A stretch of 45,424 bases of DNA from a virus. Below the pieces are notes generated by a model. It was given only the letters and a program-made list of their open reading frames with translations, made no database searches and was not told the DNA's origin. How positions within the stretch are numbered: the stretch's first letter is position 1; the number at the start of each line of letters is the position of its first letter. The position numbers and the translations under genes are program-made. This document shows, in pieces, positions 4,339 to 37,321 of the stretch. Location: UHGV virus genome UHGV-0356033; one strand, given 5' to 3'.

Positions 4339-4409
4339 AATTCACTCCTAAAGAATGTCTCACGTAGATAATATCTGTCTGACTTCTTTTTGAAATTGAG
4401 GTAGTAAGA

Positions 4410-13454: not shown

Positions 13455-13490
13455 CTTAATAACTCCAATGGTGTTACACCTGGATAATAT

Positions 13491-14159
13491 CTATCTAAGA
13501 ATATTTTTAGCGAAAAAAGGATCGACTGTAAACTCCTTCACCTGTGAATCATAACCCGAATGTATTTGATCGCTACTGAGCAAATACCGGTCTAAGTCGT
13601 GCGGAAGAATCCAAGAATCACCTTGTTTAAAAATACCATAATCTGTTGTTCCAGAGGAAGAAATGATTTCCTCTGGAGACGAATAGATGTGGCGTAAAGC
13701 GAGATCGGACGGCTTTAACACGATTAATCGAACGGGAAGTTGACTGACTGCCTCTTTAATAAACTGGTCGCGATTAAACCAAATTATTTTTTCGGGGTAG
13801 GTTTCGAATTCAGCCCATGCCCGCGTGATAACTAATTTGGAAATCTTTTTCAACTCTTCAGAACGCTCTGCGTAGCCGATACACTCCTTGCGTACTTCAT
13901 GATTTTCTATCGATGCTGTGATTTTTTGGAATAGGTGTTGTTGGAAAAAGCCGTTCTCCGGGATATCACAACCCGCGTTGTATAGTGCAATGATCTCCCA
14001 CAACAACGAAAGAGAAAACACAAATGCTAACTTTTCCACAACTTCCCAATCTTCGGAGTAAGGGGCTTTAAAGCCCCAATACTGCCGTGCGTTATACATA
14101 AAGTGAGTTTGTAAAAACCGGGGGGCTTTTGACAAGACCTCACTATAAACGATCAGCAT
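13491..14159 (-). CDS. hypothetical protein (222 aa)
   Basis: ATG 14159-14157 overlaps stop of upstream RNase H gene. Confidence 0.55.
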   Translation of the reverse strand: MLIVYSEVLSKAPRFLQTHFMYNARQYWGFKAPYSEDWEVVEKLAFVFSLSLLWEIIALYNAGCDIPENGFFQQHLFQKITASIENHEVRKECIGYAERSEELKKISKLVITRAWAEFETYPEKIIWFNRDQFIKEAVSQLPVRLIVLKPSDLALRHIYSSPEEIISSSGTTDYGIFKQGDSWILPHDLDRYLLSSDQIHSGYDSQVKEFTVDPFFAKNILR

Positions 14160-16500: not shown

Positions 16501-16956
16501 TCAGTACAAACACGATGTCAAGTATTGGTTGTACGAATCGAGTAGTGTCTGACGGTCGGAGCGGTAATTCCACAACAAATTATTGAGTTTACGCGATAGG
16601 TCACGGCTAATCTCCTGGGGCGTTAAAGAGCTTTCATCGAGAGATAAGCGTTCAGGTACAACATGTAACTTCGGTAACTCATAACGCTCACAAAGTGGAG
16701 CCAGCATTGGTGGGCTCCAGCCACGTTTAACGGCTTGTTGGTTTAAATTTCGGGTGTAGACATAAACGTAGTAAGCATAGGTGTTGACATCCGCAACATA
16801 CTCACGCATTGCATTATTGTCAATTTTCCAATTCACCATTATTGGTGGTGTAGGAGGAAGTTCCAGTGGCCTATAAGCTGGACGTTTAACTTCGTCGCCG
16901 TAGCTATTACTCACCAACCCCACGAACACCATCATGATGAATAACAGCATTTTCAT
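16501..16956 (-). CDS. secreted protein (151 aa) with Sec-type signal peptide
   Basis: ATG 16956 with AAGGAG SD; N-terminus MKMLLFIMMVFVGLVSNSYG; no lipobox Cys. Confidence 0.55.
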   Translation of the reverse strand: MKMLLFIMMVFVGLVSNSYGDEVKRPAYRPLELPPTPPIMVNWKIDNNAMREYVADVNTYAYYVYVYTRNLNQQAVKRGWSPPMLAPLCERYELPKLHVVPERLSLDESSLTPQEISRDLSRKLNNLLWNYRSDRQTLLDSYNQYLTSCLY

Positions 16957-16959
16957 CAA

Positions 16960-21129: not shown

Positions 21130-21609
21130 TTAAAATAATGGCAAGTTACGCCATTGACCTACGGAATAAAAAGCTTTTGGATGTTTACGGATATACGCTT
21201 TCGCTTCTTCTGGCAACCAACGGTCACCTACCAGTTTTTGTTGTGCAACAATTACCGCCATCAACAAATACGGGTTTTTCGCACCGGGGAACTTTGCATT
21301 GGTTTCTAGTGCAATATCCAATATTGACGACCAGCCCAGTAATTTATGCTGCGCCGGTAAACGTTCTTCAATATACATCAGCCATTTCATGATTTGTTTA
21401 GGCTTGTACGGACAGGTATAATTCGCCCAACACACCATGACGAACTTAATAGCCTTCGCAATCACCCATACAGGGACAGTCACGAAAAGGCAGAAAATGG
21501 CCAACTGCGAGGCGGGCGCTTCGACAAAAGTAAGCGCTACAAGAACCATACACAGTTCAAGTACCACAAACCAAAAACGCGTTGGATAACGCCAAATGAA
21601 TTTTATCAT
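21130..21609 (-). CDS. membrane protein (159 aa), two N-terminal hydrophobic helices
   Basis: Hydrophobic stretches FWFVVLELCMVLVALTFV and LAIFCLFVTVPVWVIAKAIKFVMV. Confidence 0.5.
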   Translation of the reverse strand: MIKFIWRYPTRFWFVVLELCMVLVALTFVEAPASQLAIFCLFVTVPVWVIAKAIKFVMVCWANYTCPYKPKQIMKWLMYIEERLPAQHKLLGWSSILDIALETNAKFPGAKNPYLLMAVIVAQQKLVGDRWLPEEAKAYIRKHPKAFYSVGQWRNLPLF

Positions 21610-21675: not shown

Positions 21676-22185
21676 TTAGAAGAACGGCTGGTTTGGAATG
21701 ACAGCGTACTCTAAAATGAACATGTGTTCTGGGGCGTCTTCTTTACGCCAGACTTTGTGTGTCGACACAAGTTTTTCCAGAATCGTTAAGAAACTACGTT
21801 GGCAGTATGTGTTTTCACCAAGCAGTAGATTTTGAAGTTCTACAGTAGCGTCCATATACGCCTGTTTAAAGACTAAATTACGGTTATACTGCCCGGTAAA
21901 ATTCCAAAGCAAGACTTTCCCTTCTTCGGTTTCTTTTACCGTTGGTCGTAAACCACAAATCCACAACAAGGCAAGGTTGACGTTCCAGTCAAACTCTAAA
22001 CCTTCTTCTTCGTCATCACCGAATGCTGTGGGTAAAGCATCGTAAAATTCGTGTTTCTCTGCGAATTCTTCATCCGACTTAATCTCGTCTTCGATACTGC
22101 TTCGGACGATACTGTAAACGTCTTTCGCGGTCAATTGTGCGGCTTTTGTAATGCCTTTATACCAATCGGTTACTACGATGCTCAA
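21676..22185 (-). CDS. hypothetical protein (169 aa), TTG start
   Basis: No ATG at 5' end; TTG 22185-22183 preceded by AGAGGAG SD with 7-nt spacer; overlaps TGA of upstream gene. Confidence 0.5.
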   Translation of the reverse strand: MSIVVTDWYKGITKAAQLTAKDVYSIVRSSIEDEIKSDEEFAEKHEFYDALPTAFGDDEEEGLEFDWNVNLALLWICGLRPTVKETEEGKVLLWNFTGQYNRNLVFKQAYMDATVELQNLLLGENTYCQRSFLTILEKLVSTHKVWRKEDAPEHMFILEYAVIPNQPFF

Positions 22186-22880
22186 AGGGTAACTCCTCTA
22201 TTGATTGGAAAACTCGTGTTTATCGTATCCCAAATTCTACTAACTTCCGCCAGTTGAATCTGACGTGGTGTTTTCTTCGCAAACGCAAGCTGACGTGGGG
22301 CCGAGCCCACAACAACAGGCACATCGATTTTCGCGCTATAGAACGCGGCGTCTTTCATAAAGCCTGCCATTTCTCGTTGTGCTGCTCGAGATTTGCTTTT
22401 GATTCGCGTGTGAGCGCCACTTTCACCCCAGTGGTAAGCTAACGCAATTTCAGCCATGGTGGGCTTGCGTTTGAGTCGTTTGGTTAACCCCTTCTCAAGA
22501 TGTTTAACATACGCAGTAGCCAGCAAAACAGCGTTACGCGGATTATACAAATCGGCGTTCTGACTAAGACCTAATTCTTTTCCATAAAGCTTTAGCAGAT
22601 TACGCTTGGTACTTGGAAGCATTTGTACCAGGCTATGTGCTCGTGAGCTTTTGTTGTAAGCCTTGGGATCAAAACGCGATTCACGATAAATCAGCGTAAT
22701 CATCAGCTTGGGATCAACGCCCTGCTTTCGTGAGATTTCCACAATTAACGGGCTGACTTTTTCGAACCGATGTTGGATTTGTGCAAACTCACGCTGATGC
22801 TTAGAATGTGGCGTTGACGTTGACGCCTGTGCGTTAAACGCGAAAAGTGTTACCAGTAAAAGGAAGAAGATACGAAACAT
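22182..22880 (-). CDS. secreted lytic transglycosylase, SLT domain (232 aa)
   Basis: Signal peptide MFRIFFLLLVTLFAFNAQA; SLT catalytic-region motif LIYRESRFDPKA...AHSLVQMLP; ATG 22880 has GGAGA SD (alternative ATG at 22907). Confidence 0.55.
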   Translation of the reverse strand: MFRIFFLLLVTLFAFNAQASTSTPHSKHQREFAQIQHRFEKVSPLIVEISRKQGVDPKLMITLIYRESRFDPKAYNKSSRAHSLVQMLPSTKRNLLKLYGKELGLSQNADLYNPRNAVLLATAYVKHLEKGLTKRLKRKPTMAEIALAYHWGESGAHTRIKSKSRAAQREMAGFMKDAAFYSAKIDVPVVVGSAPRQLAFAKKTPRQIQLAEVSRIWDTINTSFPINRGVTL

Positions 22881-22980
22881 TTTGTTTCTCCAGTTGGATT
22901 TATACATTTCCGTATTCCGTAAGACGAAATGACGGCGCGGACAGCTAATACTCCTTTGTTGTGTGCCCTAATGATAATAT

Positions 22981-24972: not shown

Positions 24973-25158
24973 CTAATTCCGCCATTCGCATTCGCGTTGA
25001 CGCCAAATTGAACCCCATGATAGTTTAATCAGATAAGATGAAACTACCCATAAAATCATCACCACACAAAACATGACATAAAGAACCGCTAGTATGGACA
25101 TGAAGCCAAACCCTGCCGCATCCACAATACGACGGAACCAATCAGTTTGCATAAACAA
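24973..25158 (-). CDS. small membrane protein (about 59-61 aa)
   Basis: Hydrophobic core FGFMSILAVLYVMFCVVMILWVVSSYLI; TTG 25158 with GAAGGAG SD 6 nt upstream (or ATG 25152); overlaps 3' end of ATPase gene. Confidence 0.4.
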   Translation of the reverse strand: MFMQTDWFRRIVDAAGFGFMSILAVLYVMFCVVMILWVVSSYLIKLSWGSIWRQRECEWRN

Positions 25159-27646
25159 TTTTTACTCCTTCGTTATACACCGCAGGCAATGTCACCCCTT
25201 CCGGTTCGATGACACAGTACGATGCTTCATTAAGTTTAGAATGAACCTCGGCTTCGTGGGAGACTACCAACAGTTGAGAAAATTCTCCCGAGTTTGCTAA
25301 CGTTTTAATAAAACCGACCAGGTTGTTACGGTGCTCCTCATCCATGCCTTCCGAAGGCTCATCCAAAAGCAACGGAAACTGATGCAACTTCAGCGCTTTG
25401 TACGCAGTCAGCCTGAACATCAGATTAAATATCGCACGCTGCGCCTTAGACCCTTTACGCACGTCAGGAACAGGCTCAGGATGCGTTTTTAGCTGGACAG
25501 GAAAAGTATAATCCAAATCGCCGTCAGTGAGGTCACAAGGCATAACGCGCATGGGGTACGTCCAGACCTGTTCGATATAACGCGTCATTAACTCTGTGAT
25601 TCTAACGATAGCGTTGTAAAAATACTTTCTAAGTACACCCTTTTCTGGCGAGAAGGCTTGAATCATCAGTTTGTTATTGAACTGCTGGGCTTGTAAGTCA
25701 GCAAGTTCGCGTTCCAAACTGTTGAGCTGATTCAATTCATTTTCCATCTGACGATAACGTTCGCGTGCGGTTGTAAAAGCATCCAGCTTCCCTTCTCGAG
25801 CACGTAAGAGTTCCTCGACGACCGTATTTGTCAACGTAACCTTAACATCACTCTCTAACCGTTCGAATAACGCACTGAAATCATCTACAGCACGTTTAAC
25901 ATTCACCAGATAGGTAAGTGTCGTGTTAGCCAGTTCGTGCTCTCTACGACGCATTGAGAGCATCTCTGTGGCTTTACCTAATCGTGACTGTTGAAAAGCA
26001 ATTTTCTGTTGTAAAGCACCATCGACGTTACCAACGGCCGCTACGGCATCCTGCCATTCTTTTTCCGCCTTCACTAACCGTTGTCGGGTTTCATGGTACT
26101 CAATAGCAGAGTACAACTCACCGTCAAACGCTGCGCATAGACTCCCGAACTGCTCGCGTGATTCTGTGAAAACGTTACGTTCTTGCAAACGCTTAAAGAA
26201 CATGCTCAATACCGGGTCCTTTGAATACGTCAGCACAATCTCACGAACCTGCCGCATATAAGTTACATCAGATTCTAACTCAACACGATCGCGTAATAGG
26301 GCCTCTAACTGCGTTTGCAGTTCCGTGCGCTGCTGCTGTTGTCCGCGAATCGAAGACTCAAGTTCAGGTAAAGAACGTGTAACACCAGGCCGAAACTTAA
26401 ACCGGCACTGCGGACAATCCACTTCCGCTGTTTCTAAGTAGTGATTACGTTCGTGATTTAAATTCTGTAAAACGTTCTCCACTCGCTGGAGTCTATCCCG
26501 CAACCCTGCGGTTTTTTGATCCATCACCAGAAGCCGTTCTTCCAAAACATTGAGTTTTTCAGTTGAATGAATTGCGTCCAGTGTTGTTCCTAACCGTTGC
26601 CCCCAGACACGCGCATCGGTAGCCGCACGAAGTTGGTCTAAATTGACGTTGTCGTTAAATAGACCCGGAAAGAGATGCTCGGTGTCCCATTTGGTAAGTA
26701 ACTCACGTAAACGCGCCAATGTATTCTTGAGACCTTCGTGATTCCGCATCAGGTAGTCTTGTCGTGTCGACTCATCCATCAATAACGACAAGTCTTTATT
26801 CAACATCGATACCTCTGTTTCAGTAGACACGACAGCTTCGCGGGCCGTCGCTTCGTTTTGTCGCGCGGCCAGTATCTGTTCATCAGTAGGCAGTCCACCA
26901 CGATGTTGTAATATTGCGTCGATGGTTGGGCCCAAGCTGTTTAATAACGCTTGGATTGTTTCGATGGTGACGGCACGATTTAATCCTGGCAACTGTTCGA
27001 TTTCTCGGTTCAGTTCACGTAAATCCGATTCCAAACCTTTTAATCTCGTCGCCAACTGCTGCCGTTCTTCCTCGTTCTCAATAACACGCGTCCGCAATTC
27101 GGCGATTTTACGGCTGGTGATTTCAATACCCCCATTTAAGGCAGTAAGGTTTTTACGTAAACGTTGATAAAACCCTAACGCGTAGGTGAGGTCAGAGGTA
27201 CTTAAACGGTAAAACCACTTACGACGCAGTTCCGTTCCTGCATCCGTTAAAAGCACTTCTCCGTTCAGTAGTTCTTTAATCTCTTTTGTAATGCCTGTGA
27301 TTTCTTCAACACGGGAGTTGTAGACTTTCGCATTACCTTGCTCGACGATCTTTGCCCCCGTGGTCAAGTTCTCAATATCACAAACCAGTGAGTTCCCTTT
27401 ACGGGCAACTTTGAAACGATAGCGTTGATCGCCAACTAAACAGTAGTTCGTGTAAGAACCGCCGTCTCTGAATTCAGTTTTAGCCGGTGCTAAGGGTAAG
27501 AACACAGACAGTAGACTGGTTTTCCCGCAGCCGTTCCCACCCAGGATAATTGTTGTTGGAGACTGGATAGTGAAATCGAAAGTTTCAATTTCATGTAACC
27601 CCATCCCCGTAAAACCTTTGAGTATAATGCGTTCAACTTTTAGCAT
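25142..27646 (-). CDS. Rad50/SbcC-family (SMC-like) ATPase with coiled coil and CxxC zinc hook (834 aa)
   Basis: Walker A GGNGCGKTS near N-terminus; long coiled-coil middle with CPQC; C-terminal signature-like GSKAQRA, Walker B LLLDEPSEGMD, H-loop VVSHEA; start set at ATG 27646 (GGAGG SD) rather than track 27721. Confidence 0.6.
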   Translation of the reverse strand: MLKVERIILKGFTGMGLHEIETFDFTIQSPTTIILGGNGCGKTSLLSVFLPLAPAKTEFRDGGSYTNYCLVGDQRYRFKVARKGNSLVCDIENLTTGAKIVEQGNAKVYNSRVEEITGITKEIKELLNGEVLLTDAGTELRRKWFYRLSTSDLTYALGFYQRLRKNLTALNGGIEITSRKIAELRTRVIENEEERQQLATRLKGLESDLRELNREIEQLPGLNRAVTIETIQALLNSLGPTIDAILQHRGGLPTDEQILAARQNEATAREAVVSTETEVSMLNKDLSLLMDESTRQDYLMRNHEGLKNTLARLRELLTKWDTEHLFPGLFNDNVNLDQLRAATDARVWGQRLGTTLDAIHSTEKLNVLEERLLVMDQKTAGLRDRLQRVENVLQNLNHERNHYLETAEVDCPQCRFKFRPGVTRSLPELESSIRGQQQQRTELQTQLEALLRDRVELESDVTYMRQVREIVLTYSKDPVLSMFFKRLQERNVFTESREQFGSLCAAFDGELYSAIEYHETRQRLVKAEKEWQDAVAAVGNVDGALQQKIAFQQSRLGKATEMLSMRRREHELANTTLTYLVNVKRAVDDFSALFERLESDVKVTLTNTVVEELLRAREGKLDAFTTARERYRQMENELNQLNSLERELADLQAQQFNNKLMIQAFSPEKGVLRKYFYNAIVRITELMTRYIEQVWTYPMRVMPCDLTDGDLDYTFPVQLKTHPEPVPDVRKGSKAQRAIFNLMFRLTAYKALKLHQFPLLLDEPSEGMDEEHRNNLVGFIKTLANSGEFSQLLVVSHEAEVHSKLNEASYCVIEPEGVTLPAVYNEGVKIVYAN

Positions 27647-27676
27647 ACCCACCTCCATAAAGACGGAGTGTGGTGT

Positions 27677-27719
27677 AAAAAGAAAAAAATAAAGAAAGGG
27701 AGAACCCGAAGGTTCTCCC
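27677..27719 (-). terminator. intrinsic terminator downstream of gene 27725..28333
   Basis: Stem 27698-27706/27711-27719 (GGGAGAACC/GGTTCTCCC) with CGAA loop; long T-run on minus strand. Confidence 0.6.
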
Positions 27720-27724
27720 AAACG

Positions 27725-28894: not shown

Positions 28895-28923
28895 GTAAAA
28901 AGGACCCCGGACGTACCGGGGTC
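28895..28923 (-). terminator. intrinsic terminator downstream of gene 28934..29323
   Basis: Stem GACCCCGG/CCGGGGTC (28903-28910/28916-28923); T-run on minus strand. Confidence 0.55.
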
Positions 28924-28933
28924 AAGACTACAC

Positions 28934-29323
28934 TCAATGATCTAATTCGATAGCACCAGCCATCTTGCCCCGTTCTTCGATAACGATCAGATAACGGTCG
29001 CGTGATTTGCTTTTAGCGAGAGTTAAGACAACAGTAGGGTCGCACGTTTTTGTGGTGATTGGAAGAACCTCTTGTGCGACGGAATCGAGCAGAAAGTAAT
29101 AACCTGCGGGACACATTGTTCCACCATCAGCTTTTACCAGAATATAGCGCCCGTCTGCGCCGACTTCTTGGCAGATTGTTTCACCGACTTCACAAACTTC
29201 AAACCCCGGAGGATTGTACTGGTAATCGGTATTGTTGTTTGGGGTTAGCAGTAAATCGTTAACGTGAGTAGATGCTGCTACACTCAGGGAGAAGAAGAAT
29301 GCTAAAACGCAGACGAGACGCAT
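28934..29323 (-). CDS. small secreted Cys-containing protein (129 aa)
   Basis: Signal peptide MRLVCVLAFFFSLSVAAS; AAGGAG SD; several Cys in mature part. Confidence 0.55.
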   Translation of the reverse strand: MRLVCVLAFFFSLSVAASTHVNDLLLTPNNNTDYQYNPPGFEVCEVGETICQEVGADGRYILVKADGGTMCPAGYYFLLDSVAQEVLPITTKTCDPTVVLTLAKSKSRDRYLIVIEERGKMAGAIELDH

Positions 29324-29333
29324 GAGTTACTCC

Positions 29334-29744
29334 TTAAATTTTAAGTTTATCCATAGCCACAACGATAGGTTTTTCCGAAGTGTCTAATATCCCTACCATT
29401 GGCACACCATCTACGACTTTGAAGAATGGTTTGTTATTGCCTGAGCACAACTGTTTGTCGTTGTATTCGAGACGTTGAGCCTTCCACGTTTCGAGGTTGA
29501 GTACGGACATCGGGCTGTCGTAGCACCAGGCACCGCCTTGCTCAACGATGAATACGTATCTGCTACCTTTGTATTTAAACAGACTCTTCGCCTGGCAGTA
29601 CAACCCGTCAATTTCCGTACAATAGAAATCATCGGTGCTATTGACGTATTTAATACCGTCTGGTAACTGTGTTGTTTTTGCTGTAGCGTTAACAGAGAAC
29701 AGAACAGCAATTGCAATGAGAAGAGTATTGATGATAGTTTTCAT
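29334..29744 (-). CDS. small secreted Cys-containing protein (136 aa)
   Basis: Signal peptide MKTIINTLLIAIAVLFSVNATA; AAGGA SD. Confidence 0.55.
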   Translation of the reverse strand: MKTIINTLLIAIAVLFSVNATAKTTQLPDGIKYVNSTDDFYCTEIDGLYCQAKSLFKYKGSRYVFIVEQGGAWCYDSPMSVLNLETWKAQRLEYNDKQLCSGNNKPFFKVVDGVPMVGILDTSEKPIVVAMDKLKI

Positions 29745-29755
29745 GATAGAAGTCC

Positions 29756-30241
29756 TTAGTATTTAGATTGTTCTGCGTATTTCTTAACCAGGTAAGCGAA
29801 TTCAGCAACACCGATATCACCGAACCAAATCAGATAACCGGGGTCGATGTTGTAGTAATAACCGACAAGTTTCTTGGTGTGTGGGTTGTATAGCGTTACG
29901 ATATATTCCCAGCCACAAGCGTTAGCTTTACAACCGCCGCTTTCAATCCAGATTTTGTTGTTGATGTTTACCGGATACATGTTACCTCCAGGGCCATCCA
30001 TGTAACCTTTAGAGCCGAACATACCATCCAGTCCCACGCGGTCTAGTGTTTTATCAACAACGGCTTTAAACGACTTATCGGTATCGTACAAGTCGTTGAT
30101 GTTTGGGCACGCATTTGGCTGACCTTCCCAAGCGTTTCCATCACAGGTAAGCAATTCGTCTACGGAGGCCGCATCTACAGTTGGTGTGACACCGATAAAC
30201 AAGAAAACCAGAAAGAACATCAGTGTATGTAAACGTTTCAT
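29756..30241 (-). CDS. small secreted Cys-containing protein (161 aa)
   Basis: Signal peptide MKRLHTLMFFLVFLFIGVTPTVDA; AAGGAG SD. Confidence 0.55.
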   Translation of the reverse strand: MKRLHTLMFFLVFLFIGVTPTVDAASVDELLTCDGNAWEGQPNACPNINDLYDTDKSFKAVVDKTLDRVGLDGMFGSKGYMDGPGGNMYPVNINNKIWIESGGCKANACGWEYIVTLYNPHTKKLVGYYYNIDPGYLIWFGDIGVAEFAYLVKKYAEQSKY

Positions 30242-30259
30242 TGTAACTACTCCTTTAGA

Positions 30260-30652
30260 TTATTCGGCAGGACGATTTAAGGTAACGCGCCCGATTAATT
30301 CGGCGTTGTGAAAGAAGTCCACAGCGGTATAGTTACCAACTGATAGCGGATGGATACTAACTGACATTACTTTTGGTTGCTCGCAGGCAATATCCGTCAG
30401 ACGTTGGTAGACTTGTGCACGGGTGTCAGCAATGAGTAATCCCGTACACGTTTCACCACGCACTAAACGATAAACTTGCAGTTTACCGAAACTGCGCATT
30501 AACGTAGGCGTCTCATCCGGGTTGATAATCGGTGAGTCAGGAGCCGGTTCGTAATAGCGGACATCCGAATCACCGAAAGCATAAGTACCGGTAATACCGA
30601 CTGCACAGAAAATAATGATAGTATAAAGTATAGTTCTGATATTCATTTTCAC
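30260..30652 (-). CDS. small secreted protein (130 aa)
   Basis: N-terminal hydrophobic signal MKMNIRTILYTIIIFCAVGITGTYA; start (GTG 30652 or ATG 30646) uncertain. Confidence 0.45.
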   Translation of the reverse strand: MKMNIRTILYTIIIFCAVGITGTYAFGDSDVRYYEPAPDSPIINPDETPTLMRSFGKLQVYRLVRGETCTGLLIADTRAQVYQRLTDIACEQPKVMSVSIHPLSVGNYTAVDFFHNAELIGRVTLNRPAE

Positions 30653-30674
30653 GCACTCTAAAAAAGATTAATAT

Positions 30675-31136
30675 TTATTTGTTAGGACGGGTGTGTCCAC
30701 AGTTCTGGAAGAAAGTTTCAGACAGACGTTCGCCTTCTACGGTAAAGTTAGCGGCGTCGTTACCATTGATACTCACACTGAAAGTTTTGGCATTACCGAT
30801 GGCATTAACGAAAGCAACCCAAGCGCGTTCTGCTTTGTCACTACCGTCCACGGTAGGGATGTTATAGGTTTTGCCGTTTACGACAATATCGATCGTGTTA
30901 TCTTCAGCGTTAGTTGCACCTACGGGTTCACCGTAATACCAAACCATGCGACCGTAAAATTTGCGATTCGCAGTTTCAGTGTCACAGTTGATAGACAGTC
31001 CGTTTCCGGCGGTGTCTTCGATTTCGTAAACTGCCTGGCCAGGGTTTTGTATTTGTTCCCAGCTGTTGATAGCGGCGTGTGCGCTATTGAGGCCGAAAGT
31101 TAAAATGGTTATTAAGAAACTGATAAAGGTTTTCAT
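30675..31136 (-). CDS. small secreted protein (153 aa)
   Basis: Signal peptide MKTFISFLITILTFGLNSAHA; AAGGAG SD. Confidence 0.55.
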   Translation of the reverse strand: MKTFISFLITILTFGLNSAHAAINSWEQIQNPGQAVYEIEDTAGNGLSINCDTETANRKFYGRMVWYYGEPVGATNAEDNTIDIVVNGKTYNIPTVDGSDKAERAWVAFVNAIGNAKTFSVSINGNDAANFTVEGERLSETFFQNCGHTRPNK

Positions 31137-31182: not shown

Positions 31183-31554
31183 TTAAATAACTGTGTTGGG
31201 GAATGCTTTAATCTGTGTATAACTATCTCCGATACCTCTTATCATTTCCAGACGTTCTTCTGTAGAAAGGCTTTGGTTAATGTCTTTGTCGAGATTGAAC
31301 AGTGTCAAGAGTTTTGCAATTGCAACCGTCAGGTTGTCGGACAGCTCGTTGTTTTTACGCCATTCTTCGTTACGGAAAATAGAGATAAGGTCTTTCGCCT
31401 GGCCTTCAGCGTGTGGTTTGGCTAACTGCGCGTCACGCTGTTCGATAAGGTATGCTTCGTTGGTAAGTAAACGTTTCAGGTCTTCTGGGTTAGTGGCAGC
31501 GCGAGTAACGATCAGTAATACAACAAACGGGTCTTTAAATAATTCGTTTTTCAT
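31183..31554 (-). CDS. hypothetical protein (123 aa)
   Basis: ATG 31554 with AGGAGAA SD. Confidence 0.55.
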   Translation of the reverse strand: MKNELFKDPFVVLLIVTRAATNPEDLKRLLTNEAYLIEQRDAQLAKPHAEGQAKDLISIFRNEEWRKNNELSDNLTVAIAKLLTLFNLDKDINQSLSTEERLEMIRGIGDSYTQIKAFPNTVI

Positions 31555-31584: not shown

Positions 31585-31626
31585 GTGAGAGCTTTTGTAC
31601 TCTCACCTAAGTAATATATATCTGAA
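31585..31626. promoter_or_regulatory. conserved regulatory element copy 1: stem-loop plus 19-bp motif TAAGTAATATATATCTGAA
   Basis: Stem GTGAGAG/CTCTCAC (31585-31591/31600-31606) immediately followed by motif at 31608-31626; identical 19-mer recurs at 35894-35912. Confidence 0.4.
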
Positions 31627-31644: not shown

Positions 31645-31679
31645 GAACAAAAAATAAAAGGTGGGGGTTTACCCCCACC
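31645..31679 (-). terminator. intrinsic terminator downstream of gene 31684..32262
   Basis: G/C stem GTGGGGG/CCCCCAC around 31660-31679; T-run on minus strand. Confidence 0.5.
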
Positions 31680-35860: not shown

Positions 35861-35912
35861 GGGACTGAACTGGTACTTCAGTCCCTATTCACTTAAGTAA
35901 TATATATCTGAA
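35861..35912. promoter_or_regulatory. conserved regulatory element copy 2: stem-loop plus 19-bp motif, 28 bp upstream of gene 35940
   Basis: Stem GGGACTGAA/TTCAGTCCC (35861-35869/35877-35885) followed by TTCACT then TAAGTAATATATATCTGAA at 35894-35912. Confidence 0.45.
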
Positions 35913-37042: not shown

Positions 37043-37111
37043 CTATCTTATGCTTCGGTTGTAACACACGTCGGTCTTAGACCAACATTCCTTTTGAAAT
37101 GGAGAGCTGTT

Positions 37112-37321
37112 ATGTCTATTAAAGAGTTCTCTTCTGCTGAGCATATTCCAGAAGAGTTTAAGAAAATCGGTAACGTTAGCGCTTTCGGCGACACCGTTGA
37201 TCATGTAACTGGTAAGCTGGCTGCTGAAGCCGAAAAAATTGGCGGCGACGCATTCAAGGTTATCGGTATTTCCGGCAACAACAAACTGCACGGTAACGCG
37301 ATTGTCTACAAAAAAGACTAA
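37112..37321 (+). CDS. DUF1471-domain protein (BhsA/McbA/YdgH-like), 69 aa, no signal peptide
   Basis: KIGNVSAFGDTVDHVTGKLAAEAEKIGGDAFKVIGISGNNKLHGNAIVYK matches, from memory, the C-terminal domain of E. coli BhsA (...LEEQLAQKADEMGAKSFRITSVTGPNTLHGTAVIYK); GGAGAG SD 5 nt before ATG 37112. Confidence 0.55.
   Translation: MSIKEFSSAEHIPEEFKKIGNVSAFGDTVDHVTGKLAAEAEKIGGDAFKVIGISGNNKLHGNAIVYKKD

Follow-up and report, generated by a model that had tools for sequence, protein, structure and literature searches.

A cassette of five predicted periplasmic proteins, including a remote relative of the lysozyme inhibitor Ivy, in an SPN3US-like jumbo phage

A stretch of 45,424 nucleotides (nt) of the virus genome UHGV-0356033, hereafter called the window, carries a block of five adjacent, leftward genes (p1 to p5, positions 28934–31136) whose small products each begin with an apparent Sec signal peptide. 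All five open reading frames (ORFs) had been listed in an original prediction made from the sequence alone, and are present as it described them, with lengths of 129–161 amino acids (aa). They belong to a gene block that is syntenic in SPN3US-like jumbo phages, and one product, p3, appears to be a divergent relative of the lysozyme inhibitor Ivy. Our preferred reading, held tentatively and with slightly less than even confidence, is that the block is an early periplasmic cassette for wall protection or superinfection exclusion, in which p3 would inhibit muralytic enzymes while the other proteins would bind further envelope targets.

Adjacent ORFs are separated by only 10–22 nt, and GGAG-type ribosome-binding sites precede p1, p2, p3 and p5. 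The listed start of p4 is a GTG codon; an ATG lies two codons downstream, at 30646, and since every orthologue begins at the corresponding ATG, this is probably the real start. Each of the five N-termini consists of one or two basic residues, a hydrophobic core of 10–14 residues and a small-x-small site, with cleavage predicted at VAA↓S, ATA↓K, VDA↓A, TYA↓F and AHA↓A (p1 to p5, respectively). The predicted signal peptide of p3, MKRLHTLMFFLVFLFIGVTPTVDA↓AS, is kept in all of its homologues, and the same architecture is retained in every orthologue of the cassette proteins despite their diverged sequences. No hydrophobic or transmembrane segment is found in p1–p5 beyond the N-terminal one. The absence of a lipobox from all five, claimed originally, was borne out by inspection of the N-terminal sequences; the N-terminal Cys residues of p1 (RLVC, residue 5) and p4 (IIFC) fall within the h-region and lack a G, A or S at position -1. 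The mature parts contain 4, 4, 4, 2 and 2 Cys (p1 to p5), so that the earlier claim of even numbers in most of them was an understatement, and these residues are invariant or nearly so across homologues in the alignments of each family (A1, A3, A5, A6 and A7). Even and conserved Cys are the pattern expected of disulphide-bonded periplasmic proteins. Signal peptides were scored on the 56 non-overlapping ORFs of the window with a home-made rule based on hydropathy, charge and the -3/-1 residues, which was passed by seven ORFs, five of them p1–p5, and the probability of finding a run of five or more adjacent ORFs among seven flagged out of 56 is P = 2.5e-4 (permutation). Together with a shared transcription unit and the synteny seen in SPN3US-like relatives, both described below, this value supports the originally proposed dedicated cassette of putative exported proteins over a chance run.

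The block is enclosed, along with the upstream gene w123, by two strong intrinsic terminators (Table 1). Both have an 8-bp stem with seven GC pairs, that of the upstream terminator being GGTGGGGG-taaa-CCCCCACC (followed by TTTTATTTTT) and that of the downstream terminator GACCCCGG-tacgt-CCGGGGTC (followed by CTTTTT), and from this arrangement we conclude that w123 and p5 to p1 form a single transcription unit. The promoter-like motif at its head recurs at the equivalent, syntenic place in phiEaH2, Asesino, SPAsTU and the metagenomic contig L013, and in Erwinia phages megablast matched it at 100% over 40 nt. It matches the published consensus TATATTAC of the phages N1M2, OBP, 201phi2-1 and phiKZ (PMC7058600), the OBP promoter having been classed as early from its position before early operons (PMC7058600). 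Because the motif matches the early consensus of phiKZ, OBP and 201phi2-1, the cassette is probably expressed early. A search of the window with a degenerate 23-nt consensus, allowing up to two mismatches, gave four sites compared with none in 100 shuffles, and all four are on the minus strand, upstream of minus-strand genes. The copy at 35890-35912, which differs from the cassette copy at one of 23 nt and also has a hairpin after it, sits in a divergent intergenic region of about 320 nt that also contains G-rich repeats (GGTAGGGGGTAGGGGG).

Table 1. Genes and transcription signals of the cassette region (window coordinates).
Feature	Position	Strand	Description
p1	28934-29323	-	129 aa; predicted exported 4-Cys protein, SPN3US gp183 orthologue, remote p2 paralogue
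p2	29334-29744	-	136 aa; predicted exported 4-Cys all-beta protein, SPN3US gp182 family
p3	29756-30241	-	161 aa; predicted exported Ivy-like protein, 4 conserved Cys, disulphide loop C-KANA-C
p4	30260-30652	-	130 aa; predicted exported, jumbo-phage-specific protein, SPN3US gp180 orthologue, 2 conserved mature Cys
p5	30675-31136	-	153 aa; predicted exported YfjT-family protein, 2 conserved Cys
w123	31183-31554	-	123 aa, non-exported; first gene of the unit, in this phage only
Upstream intrinsic terminator	31660..31679	-	Ends the unit of the 192-aa gene; 5' boundary of the cassette unit
Downstream intrinsic terminator	28903..28923	-	11 nt past the p1 stop codon; 3' boundary of the unit
phiKZ-type early-promoter-like motif	31604..31626	-	TTCAGATATATATTACTTAGGTG, then a short hairpin; between the upstream terminator and the first gene
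Further motif copies	4361-4383, 13477-13499, 35890-35912	-	Each upstream of leftward genes

A megablast search of the region against 50,697 phage genomes (INPHARED) found no close genome, the only matches being to 40–58 nt at the promoter motif. Comparison of the encoded proteins shows the window to be syntenic with the jumbo phages SPN3US, phiEaH2 and Asesino (Seoulvirus and Erskinevirus, about 240 kb), and by this measure it comes from an SPN3US-like jumbo phage, i.e., a giant enterobacterial phage. Its relatives being lytic jumbo phages, the label of virulent phage given to it originally is plausible. The gene order in these relatives is a 190-aa gene, one or more variable genes, gp180, gp181, gp182, gp183, gp184, gp185 and an SMC-like gene. 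The SPN3US proteins gp180, gp182 and gp183 (PHROGs 9424, 8968 and 5248) are direct orthologues of p4, p2 and p1 (44–52%, 30–36% and 48–51% identity, respectively), occur in the same order upstream of the SMC-like gene, and, like gp181, have orthologues in the relatives that all begin with signal-peptide-like N-termini. Synteny of the cassette was found in all SPN3US-like phages examined, which have a four-gene core in common. In the lineage of the window, p3 occupies the gp181 position, where a gp181-type paralogue has been replaced, and the YfjT gene p5 has been added relative to SPN3US. That p3 might be a diverged gp181 orthologue was considered and rejected, as there is no profile similarity between them.

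Closer relatives are found only among metagenomic contigs, one of which, L013, has 85% DNA identity. Three IMG/VR contigs of jumbo-phage type (L033, L035 and L036; two of about 220–225 kb and one of 107 kb) have the same five-gene order of YfjT-like, p4, p3, p2 and p1 (families F5-F4-F3-F2-F1), with the block placed directly after a 192-aa gene, and in L013 a second YfjT paralogue brings the row to six predicted exported genes. The product of w123 has no signal peptide and matches phrog_27024, of unknown function; its gene is absent from all four contigs, in which the promoter region leads straight into the p5 orthologue. The head of the cassette is a hotspot of gene turnover. The second YfjT paralogue of L013 (9093-9551; 31% identical to p5) is found in place of w123, while phiEaH2, Asesino and SPAsTU have a 430-aa or a 79-aa gene there.

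All homologues found are annotated as hypothetical proteins, and a literature search found no paper discussing SPN3US gp180-183. The two SPN3US virion papers examined do not name these proteins in their main text, and the sole trace of the block is a row for a synonymous single nucleotide polymorphism in SPN3US_0183 in a supplementary variant table of one of them. The PHROG matches of the cassette proteins are all to families of unknown function. Homology to ordinary structural or lysis proteins, named originally as a refutation, is supported by neither observation.

Four independent analyses point to p3 being a remote, divergent relative of Ivy (E. coli YkfE; PF08816, NF007443; PDB 1GPQ, 1XS0 and 1UUZ). 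First, p3 matches the NCBIfam Ivy family (NF007443) with an E-value of 0.0012 and 18.7 bits, compared with a cut-off of 180, and eight of the nine members of the p3 family match it. The Pfam Ivy family (PF08816) is matched by five of the nine (best E-value 0.0077) and not by the phage p3 itself, and no non-Ivy family is matched by more than two members. Second, in a search of PDB sequences with a profile of the p3 family, Ivy was listed second, with C-KANA-C-G aligned on C-KPHD-C-G; a PDB search with the single p3 sequence returned only noise. Third, hhalign aligned the p3 family with E. coli Ivy over 75 columns with a score of 29.0, compared with 11.9 +/- 2.2 for shuffled Ivy sequences (maximum 21.6 of 200), a difference of about 7.8 standard deviations. 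Fourth, the predicted structure of p3 is alpha/beta and Ivy-like, and in the model the antiparallel sheet packed by helices that characterizes the Ivy fold is present. Since all scores fall below the curated family thresholds, p3 is best described as a remote relative and not as a bona fide Ivy.

The loop has the same length and position in p3 and Ivy, and the two Cys, the Lys and the following Gly are kept (CKANAC-G vs CKPHDC-G). Abergel and co-workers reportedly showed in 2007 that the loop His of Ivy enters the active site of lysozyme; the phage p3 has Asn at this place, whereas the E. coli homologues P0002 and P0004 retain His (CKAHAC). Compared with Ivy, p3 has an additional, predicted N-terminal disulphide pair and a longer C-terminus, and, while Ivy is a core chromosomal gene of the Rcs regulon, p3 is encoded by a lytic jumbo phage and by mobile islands (see later). 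Ivy is annotated as periplasmic in K-12, and the same location is predicted for p3 from its cleavable-looking signal peptide. When phage genomes were searched with p3 and p5 (tblastn), neither gave a match.

The original view that no resemblance is obvious among the five proteins is wrong for p1 and p2. p1 matches phrog_5248 (E-value 4e-31) and, weakly, phrog_8968, p2 matches the same PHROG 5248/8968 family (E-value 6e-32), and weak BLAST matches of p1 to gp182 and gp181 orthologues also hint at paralogy. In hhalign comparisons, the p1/gp183 family (F1) and the p2/gp182 family (F2) were related with a probability of 90% (E-value 1.8e-6), F2 and the gp181 family (F3b) with 97.8% (E-value 8e-13), and F1 and F3b with 86%, while the A5 profile scored p1 at 116 bits. 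By these profile comparisons, p1 and p2 are remote paralogues within a narrow 4-Cys family that includes SPN3US gp181-183. Its members share the core aromatic-C-x6-9-C ... Y-x-L-V-x3-GG-x2-C-P-x-G-Y/W ... C, with all four Cys conserved. The family is very small: among 1.84 billion representative proteins, a search with its profile found 35 clusters at E <= 1e-3, and one of these (P0086, 728 aa) is spurious and consists of low-complexity repeats. The 20 genuine members for which a sequence was available are 106–164 aa long and 19 have a signal-peptide-like N-terminus, the exception being an N-terminally truncated sequence.

Structure models were made for p2 and p3, and what is said here of folds in other family members is by homology. 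The p2 model is confident and all-beta, a small beta-meander, and a search of BFVD matched only uncharacterised jumbo-phage proteins. PDB profile searches with the p1/p2, p4 and p5 families gave nothing significant, and the 4-Cys all-beta family has no solved relative. A strand-turn-Cys-strand motif had suggested that all five proteins might share one Ivy-like fold; this was rejected, as the p2 model is all-beta without a match to Ivy, and hhalign comparisons of F1, F2, F3b, F4 and F5 with Ivy gave nothing. p4 matches phrog_9424 (E-value 1.4e-40), and its homologues are confined to contigs of up to 250 kb, the long ones being of jumbo-phage size, which is the distribution of a family specific to jumbo phages. 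Two of its Cys are in register with those of the 4-Cys family, and the idea that p4 is a fourth paralogue was dropped because the hhalign probability was below 1%; nor did p4 show a significant relation to the other cassette families in hhalign comparisons. Sub-threshold Pfam matches were put down to chance, those to AlgF (p1) and ATP-grasp_5 (p4) being isolated, and those to DUF5114 and DUF3666 (p5) recurring only in p5 and its close orthologue.

By sequence similarity, p5 belongs to the YfjT family. It is 80% identical to the product of an L013 gene with a precomputed match to PF27224:YfjT, a hidden Markov model (HMM) of the p5 family scores E. coli K-12 YfjT at 75.5 bits, and p5 and YfjT are 25% identical over 133 aa (BLASTP, E-value 2.7e-14). 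In the p5 family, C51 (in an N-terminal INC) and C146 (C-terminal) are invariant, and a signal peptide is found in all six aligned members; the N-terminus of K-12 YfjT is likewise signal-peptide-like. Homologues of other cassette proteins also occur in chromosomal islands. A 160-aa E. coli protein, encoded on hundreds of chromosomal contigs, shares about 65% identity with p3; its gene lies in CP4-type integrative islands, in the gene order GTPase, dynamin-like protein, YjcZ, patatin, 180-aa exported protein, p3-like protein, DUF932, antirestriction protein, RadC and CbeA/CbtA. In the same slot of other E. coli strains, the p3-like gene is followed by a p2-like gene before DUF932, with order and spacing as in the phage. 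The island p2-like protein is 79% identical to p2, compared with about 30% for SPN3US gp182, and the p3-p2 blocks of phage and island share 73% DNA identity over 933 bp, spanning both genes. The island copies of p3-p2 have a GC content of 41–46% within a locus of 51.5% GC. Islands of Yersinia rohdei and Pantoea ananatis carry gp181-type homologues, which are flanked there by a gene for a WYL regulator and one for YfjT.

In the CP4-57 island of E. coli K-12, the same slot holds yfjS, annotated as encoding an inner-membrane lipoprotein. YfjS aligns with the 4-Cys family (hhalign against A5, 56%, E-value 1.1e-4, 53 columns) with both Cys in register, and scores 12 bits with the F1 HMM; the link of YfjS to the p1/p2 family is no more than suggestive. 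The island pairs yfjS-yfjT (CP4-57) and yafY-ykfB (CP4-6) share the YfjT family with p5, and the YfjS slot, directly upstream of YfjT, is occupied by the gp181/p2/p1 family in the Yersinia and Pantoea islands. A difference is that K-12 YfjS is a lipoprotein with a lipobox (LSAC), whereas p1 and p2 have signal peptidase I-type sites and none of the phage cassette proteins has a lipobox. No experimentally assigned function of YfjS or YfjT was found in the literature and annotation searched, and for this reason the yfjS-yfjT comparison provides context and not mechanism. At least three of the four cassette protein families are, from these homologies, common to the accessory region of CP4-57-type islands, and the DNA identity of the p3-p2 blocks is evidence that genes have been exchanged between a lytic jumbo phage lineage and integrative elements, the lineage having swapped or added members relative to SPN3US.

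Two further features of the islands may be mentioned. The 180-aa protein encoded upstream of the p3-like gene in an E. coli island (L008:5098-5640) has a signal peptide and a …GDGCYFYILD…C motif that resembles the p1/p2/YfjS core; the F1 and F2 HMMs match it with E-values of 0.02-0.007 in a 12-sequence database, and it may be a further member of the p1/p2/YfjS superfamily. In L023:6309-7351 (5.5 Mb, GCA_910593955.1) the p3-like and p2-like copies are fragmented into calls of 130, 80 and 116 aa with frameshifts, so that the pair is in decay in some strains. The original prediction had overlooked that p1 and p2 are paralogues, that p3 and p5 are related to Ivy and YfjT, and that the cassette is linked to CP4-type islands of E. 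coli.

The Sec pathway would carry p1–p5 into the periplasm of a cell just infected, and there they would fold as small, soluble, disulphide-bonded proteins, most likely serving as stoichiometric binders or inhibitors whose targets lie in the periplasm or envelope. For p3 these would be lysozyme-like or lytic-transglycosylase-type muralytic enzymes, bound through its disulphide-constrained beta-hairpin loop as in Ivy. With its wall protected in this way, the infected cell would withstand lysis from without and the tail lysins of phages arriving second, in the manner of the T4 protein Spackle. Ivy, MliC and the Pli inhibitors block the active site of their target with a loop that lies between antiparallel strands (PMC7677548), and Ivy-type proteins inhibit lytic transglycosylases in vitro (PMC10139938). 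PliC/MliC, PliG and PliI are small, mostly beta-sheet, exported and often disulphide-bonded, a general design like that of the p2 model with its conserved GGxxCPxG turn.

Spackle (gp61.3), which is early and located in the periplasm, inhibits the tail lysozyme gp5 of incoming phages and so causes superinfection exclusion (PMC7677548), and as a small, early, exported phage protein it is a functional analogue of the role proposed here. The functions listed originally (superinfection exclusion, receptor masking, lysis inhibition and interference with envelope-located defences) are narrowed somewhat by these findings: a Spackle-like role in wall protection and exclusion is favoured because one member of the cassette is Ivy-like and the promoter is of the early class. 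The likeness does not extend to structure, as Spackle is an alpha-helical bundle with a different mode of inhibition (PMC7677548) and has no homology to the cassette proteins; PHROG, Pfam and PDB searches gave no match to Spackle, and the p2 and p3 models are all-beta and alpha/beta, respectively. Spackle is also a single protein, whereas the cassette, with its proposed role in exclusion, comprises five proteins from four unrelated families. The exclusion proteins Llp (of T5) and Cor differ in being outer-membrane lipoproteins that depend on a lipobox, which none of the five has.

Several points weigh against wall protection and exclusion. The signal peptides were called with the home-made rule and not with a trained predictor, and p4 could be a signal-anchored membrane protein rather than an exported one. 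The early class of the promoter was assigned by its similarity to the consensus of promoters from other phages. The p3 loop lacks the His (replaced by Asn), Pro and Asp of CKPHDC, and given these changes its inhibition of lysozyme may have been lost or retargeted. Lytic transglycosylases are themselves only weakly inhibited by E. coli Ivy (PMC10139938), and neither PADLOC nor Pfam gave anything above threshold for the cassette proteins.

Among other explanations, a role in counter-defence or in receptor or envelope remodelling is considered unlikely. The proteins would then bind components of the host periplasm or outer membrane, e.g., receptors, porins, Tol-Pal, envelope-stress sensors or the effectors of envelope defences, instead of muralytic enzymes. 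This would fit the core families p1/p2 and p4, which show no relation to inhibitors, and the small, predicted disulphide-bonded beta-meander of p2 would suit protein-protein binding. Overproduction of YafY, the CP4-6 paralogue of YfjS, reportedly perturbs envelope stress signalling (Miyadai and co-workers, 2004), and the set of proteins varies between phages in the way expected of arms-race genes, with a second YfjT in L013 and p3 in place of gp181. None of the cassette proteins matches an anti-defence family or a PADLOC entry, however, and the Ivy-like member points to muralytic enzymes.

The cassette, and p3 in particular, might alternatively keep a Sec-exported lytic transglycosylase of the phage itself inactive in the periplasm until the trigger for lysis, or modulate host autolysins so as to time lysis; we regard this as rather improbable. 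A candidate enzyme is present in the window at 22182-22907 (minus strand), where a 241-aa SLT-domain protein with a cleavable-looking signal peptide (…FNAQA↓STS) is encoded. It is MltC/EmtA-like, matches phrog_4067 ('transglycosylase'), and its L013 orthologue has a Pfam SLT match. An exported muralytic enzyme needs restraint, which the activity of Ivy-type proteins on lytic transglycosylases in vitro might provide (PMC10139938), although that of E. coli Ivy is weak. The cassette is nevertheless a separate unit under an early-type promoter, about 6 kb from the SLT gene, and in the E. coli islands the p3-like/p2-like pair occurs without such an SLT gene beside it. The argument made for Spackle, that a late endolysin is an improbable target for an inhibitor made early (PMC7677548), also counts against lysis control. 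The SLT gene has neighbours at 21676-22185 and 21130-21609 (minus strand), the next gene but one encoding a 159-aa protein with hydrophobic segments, and together they may form an exported endolysin and lysis module and provide a candidate target of p3.

It is still more doubtful that the genes are 'moron'-like cargo that benefits the host, e.g., against animal lysozyme or the muralytic toxins of competitors, with no role in the lytic cycle. What speaks for cargo is the occurrence of p3, p2, gp181-type and YfjT homologues in CP4-57-type islands, beside patatin, dynamin-like GTPases, antirestriction proteins, RadC and CbtA/CbeA, and the 73% DNA identity of the phage and island p3-p2 blocks. A lytic jumbo phage has nothing to gain from long-term host fitness, however. 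Moreover, the four-gene core has stayed syntenic in SPN3US-like relatives though the orthologues are only about 30–50% identical, the five-gene order recurs in the closer contigs, and a phage-specific promoter stands ahead of the cassette, all of which argues for a role in infection.

Finally, the possibility that there is no export cassette, the N-termini being chance features or anchors of structural or lysis proteins, was entertained because no trained predictor was applied and the h-region of p4 is long enough to anchor, but it is highly improbable given the low P value of the run, the preservation of signal architecture and even Cys in distant homologues, the lack of further transmembrane segments and the relation of p3 to periplasmic Ivy and of p5 to YfjT with its signal-peptide-like N-terminus, and has largely been refuted. 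The structural or lysis reading in particular is unsupported, since the PHROG matches carry no function and the SPN3US orthologues go unnamed in the two virion papers examined.

The phiKZ-like and SPN3US-like jumbo phages have been studied mainly for what they do inside the cell, such as their nucleus-like shell, their own RNA polymerases and their complex virions, and to our knowledge almost nothing is known of how jumbo phages act on the envelope. A conserved block of four to six predicted periplasmic proteins is a place to seek exclusion, protection from lysis from without, or envelope counter-defence, and the remote relation to Ivy would give p3 a concrete biochemical prediction, namely inhibition of lysozyme or lytic transglycosylases. 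Early periplasmic envelope protectors were already known from a phage (T4), and Ivy-type inhibitors from bacteria. New are a cassette of several genes from several families that is conserved among SPN3US-like jumbo phages, a remote Ivy relative encoded by a lytic phage, a small beta family with four Cys and no solved relative, and the exchange of cassette genes, including the YfjT family, with CP4-57-type islands. Through the island homologues the phage genes are connected with yfjT, and possibly yfjS, of E. coli, which sit among cargo for defence and anti-restriction, and a result from either system would bear on the other. A broader and speculative idea, to which we assign a low probability, is that the cassette and its island homologues form an exchangeable toolkit, not recognised before, of periplasmic proteins that block entry or protect the wall, serving early exclusion in jumbo phages and constitutive anti-phage defence in the islands. 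If so, the 4-Cys beta-meander would be a new structural class of inhibitor, directed at muralytic enzymes of phages or bacteria, and E. coli YfjT, and possibly YfjS, would gain a first function.

Other features of the window were recorded in passing. Outside the cassette, a classical signal peptide (MMKMLLFIMMVFVGLVSNSYG↓DE) is present in just one small ORF, at 16501-16959 (minus strand); its 152-aa product matches phrog_8165, of unknown function, and is unrelated to all the cassette families. A small ORF at 37094-37321 (plus strand; …MSIKEFSSAEHIPEEFKKIGNVSAFG…GNAIVYKKD) is placed by coordinate mapping at L013:2788-2997, which carries a match to the Pfam YdgH/BhsA-like family (PF07338), a host-type stress-protein domain that is normally periplasmic; the phage copy appears to be without a signal peptide. 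The SMC/SbcC-like ORF at 25142-27721 (minus strand; 859 aa, TTG start) has an intrinsic terminator (27719-27698) inside its first codons, and its L013 orthologue is shorter (834 aa, beginning MLKVERIILKGF). From these two observations, the ORF has probably been called too long, with the likely start at the ATG at 27646.

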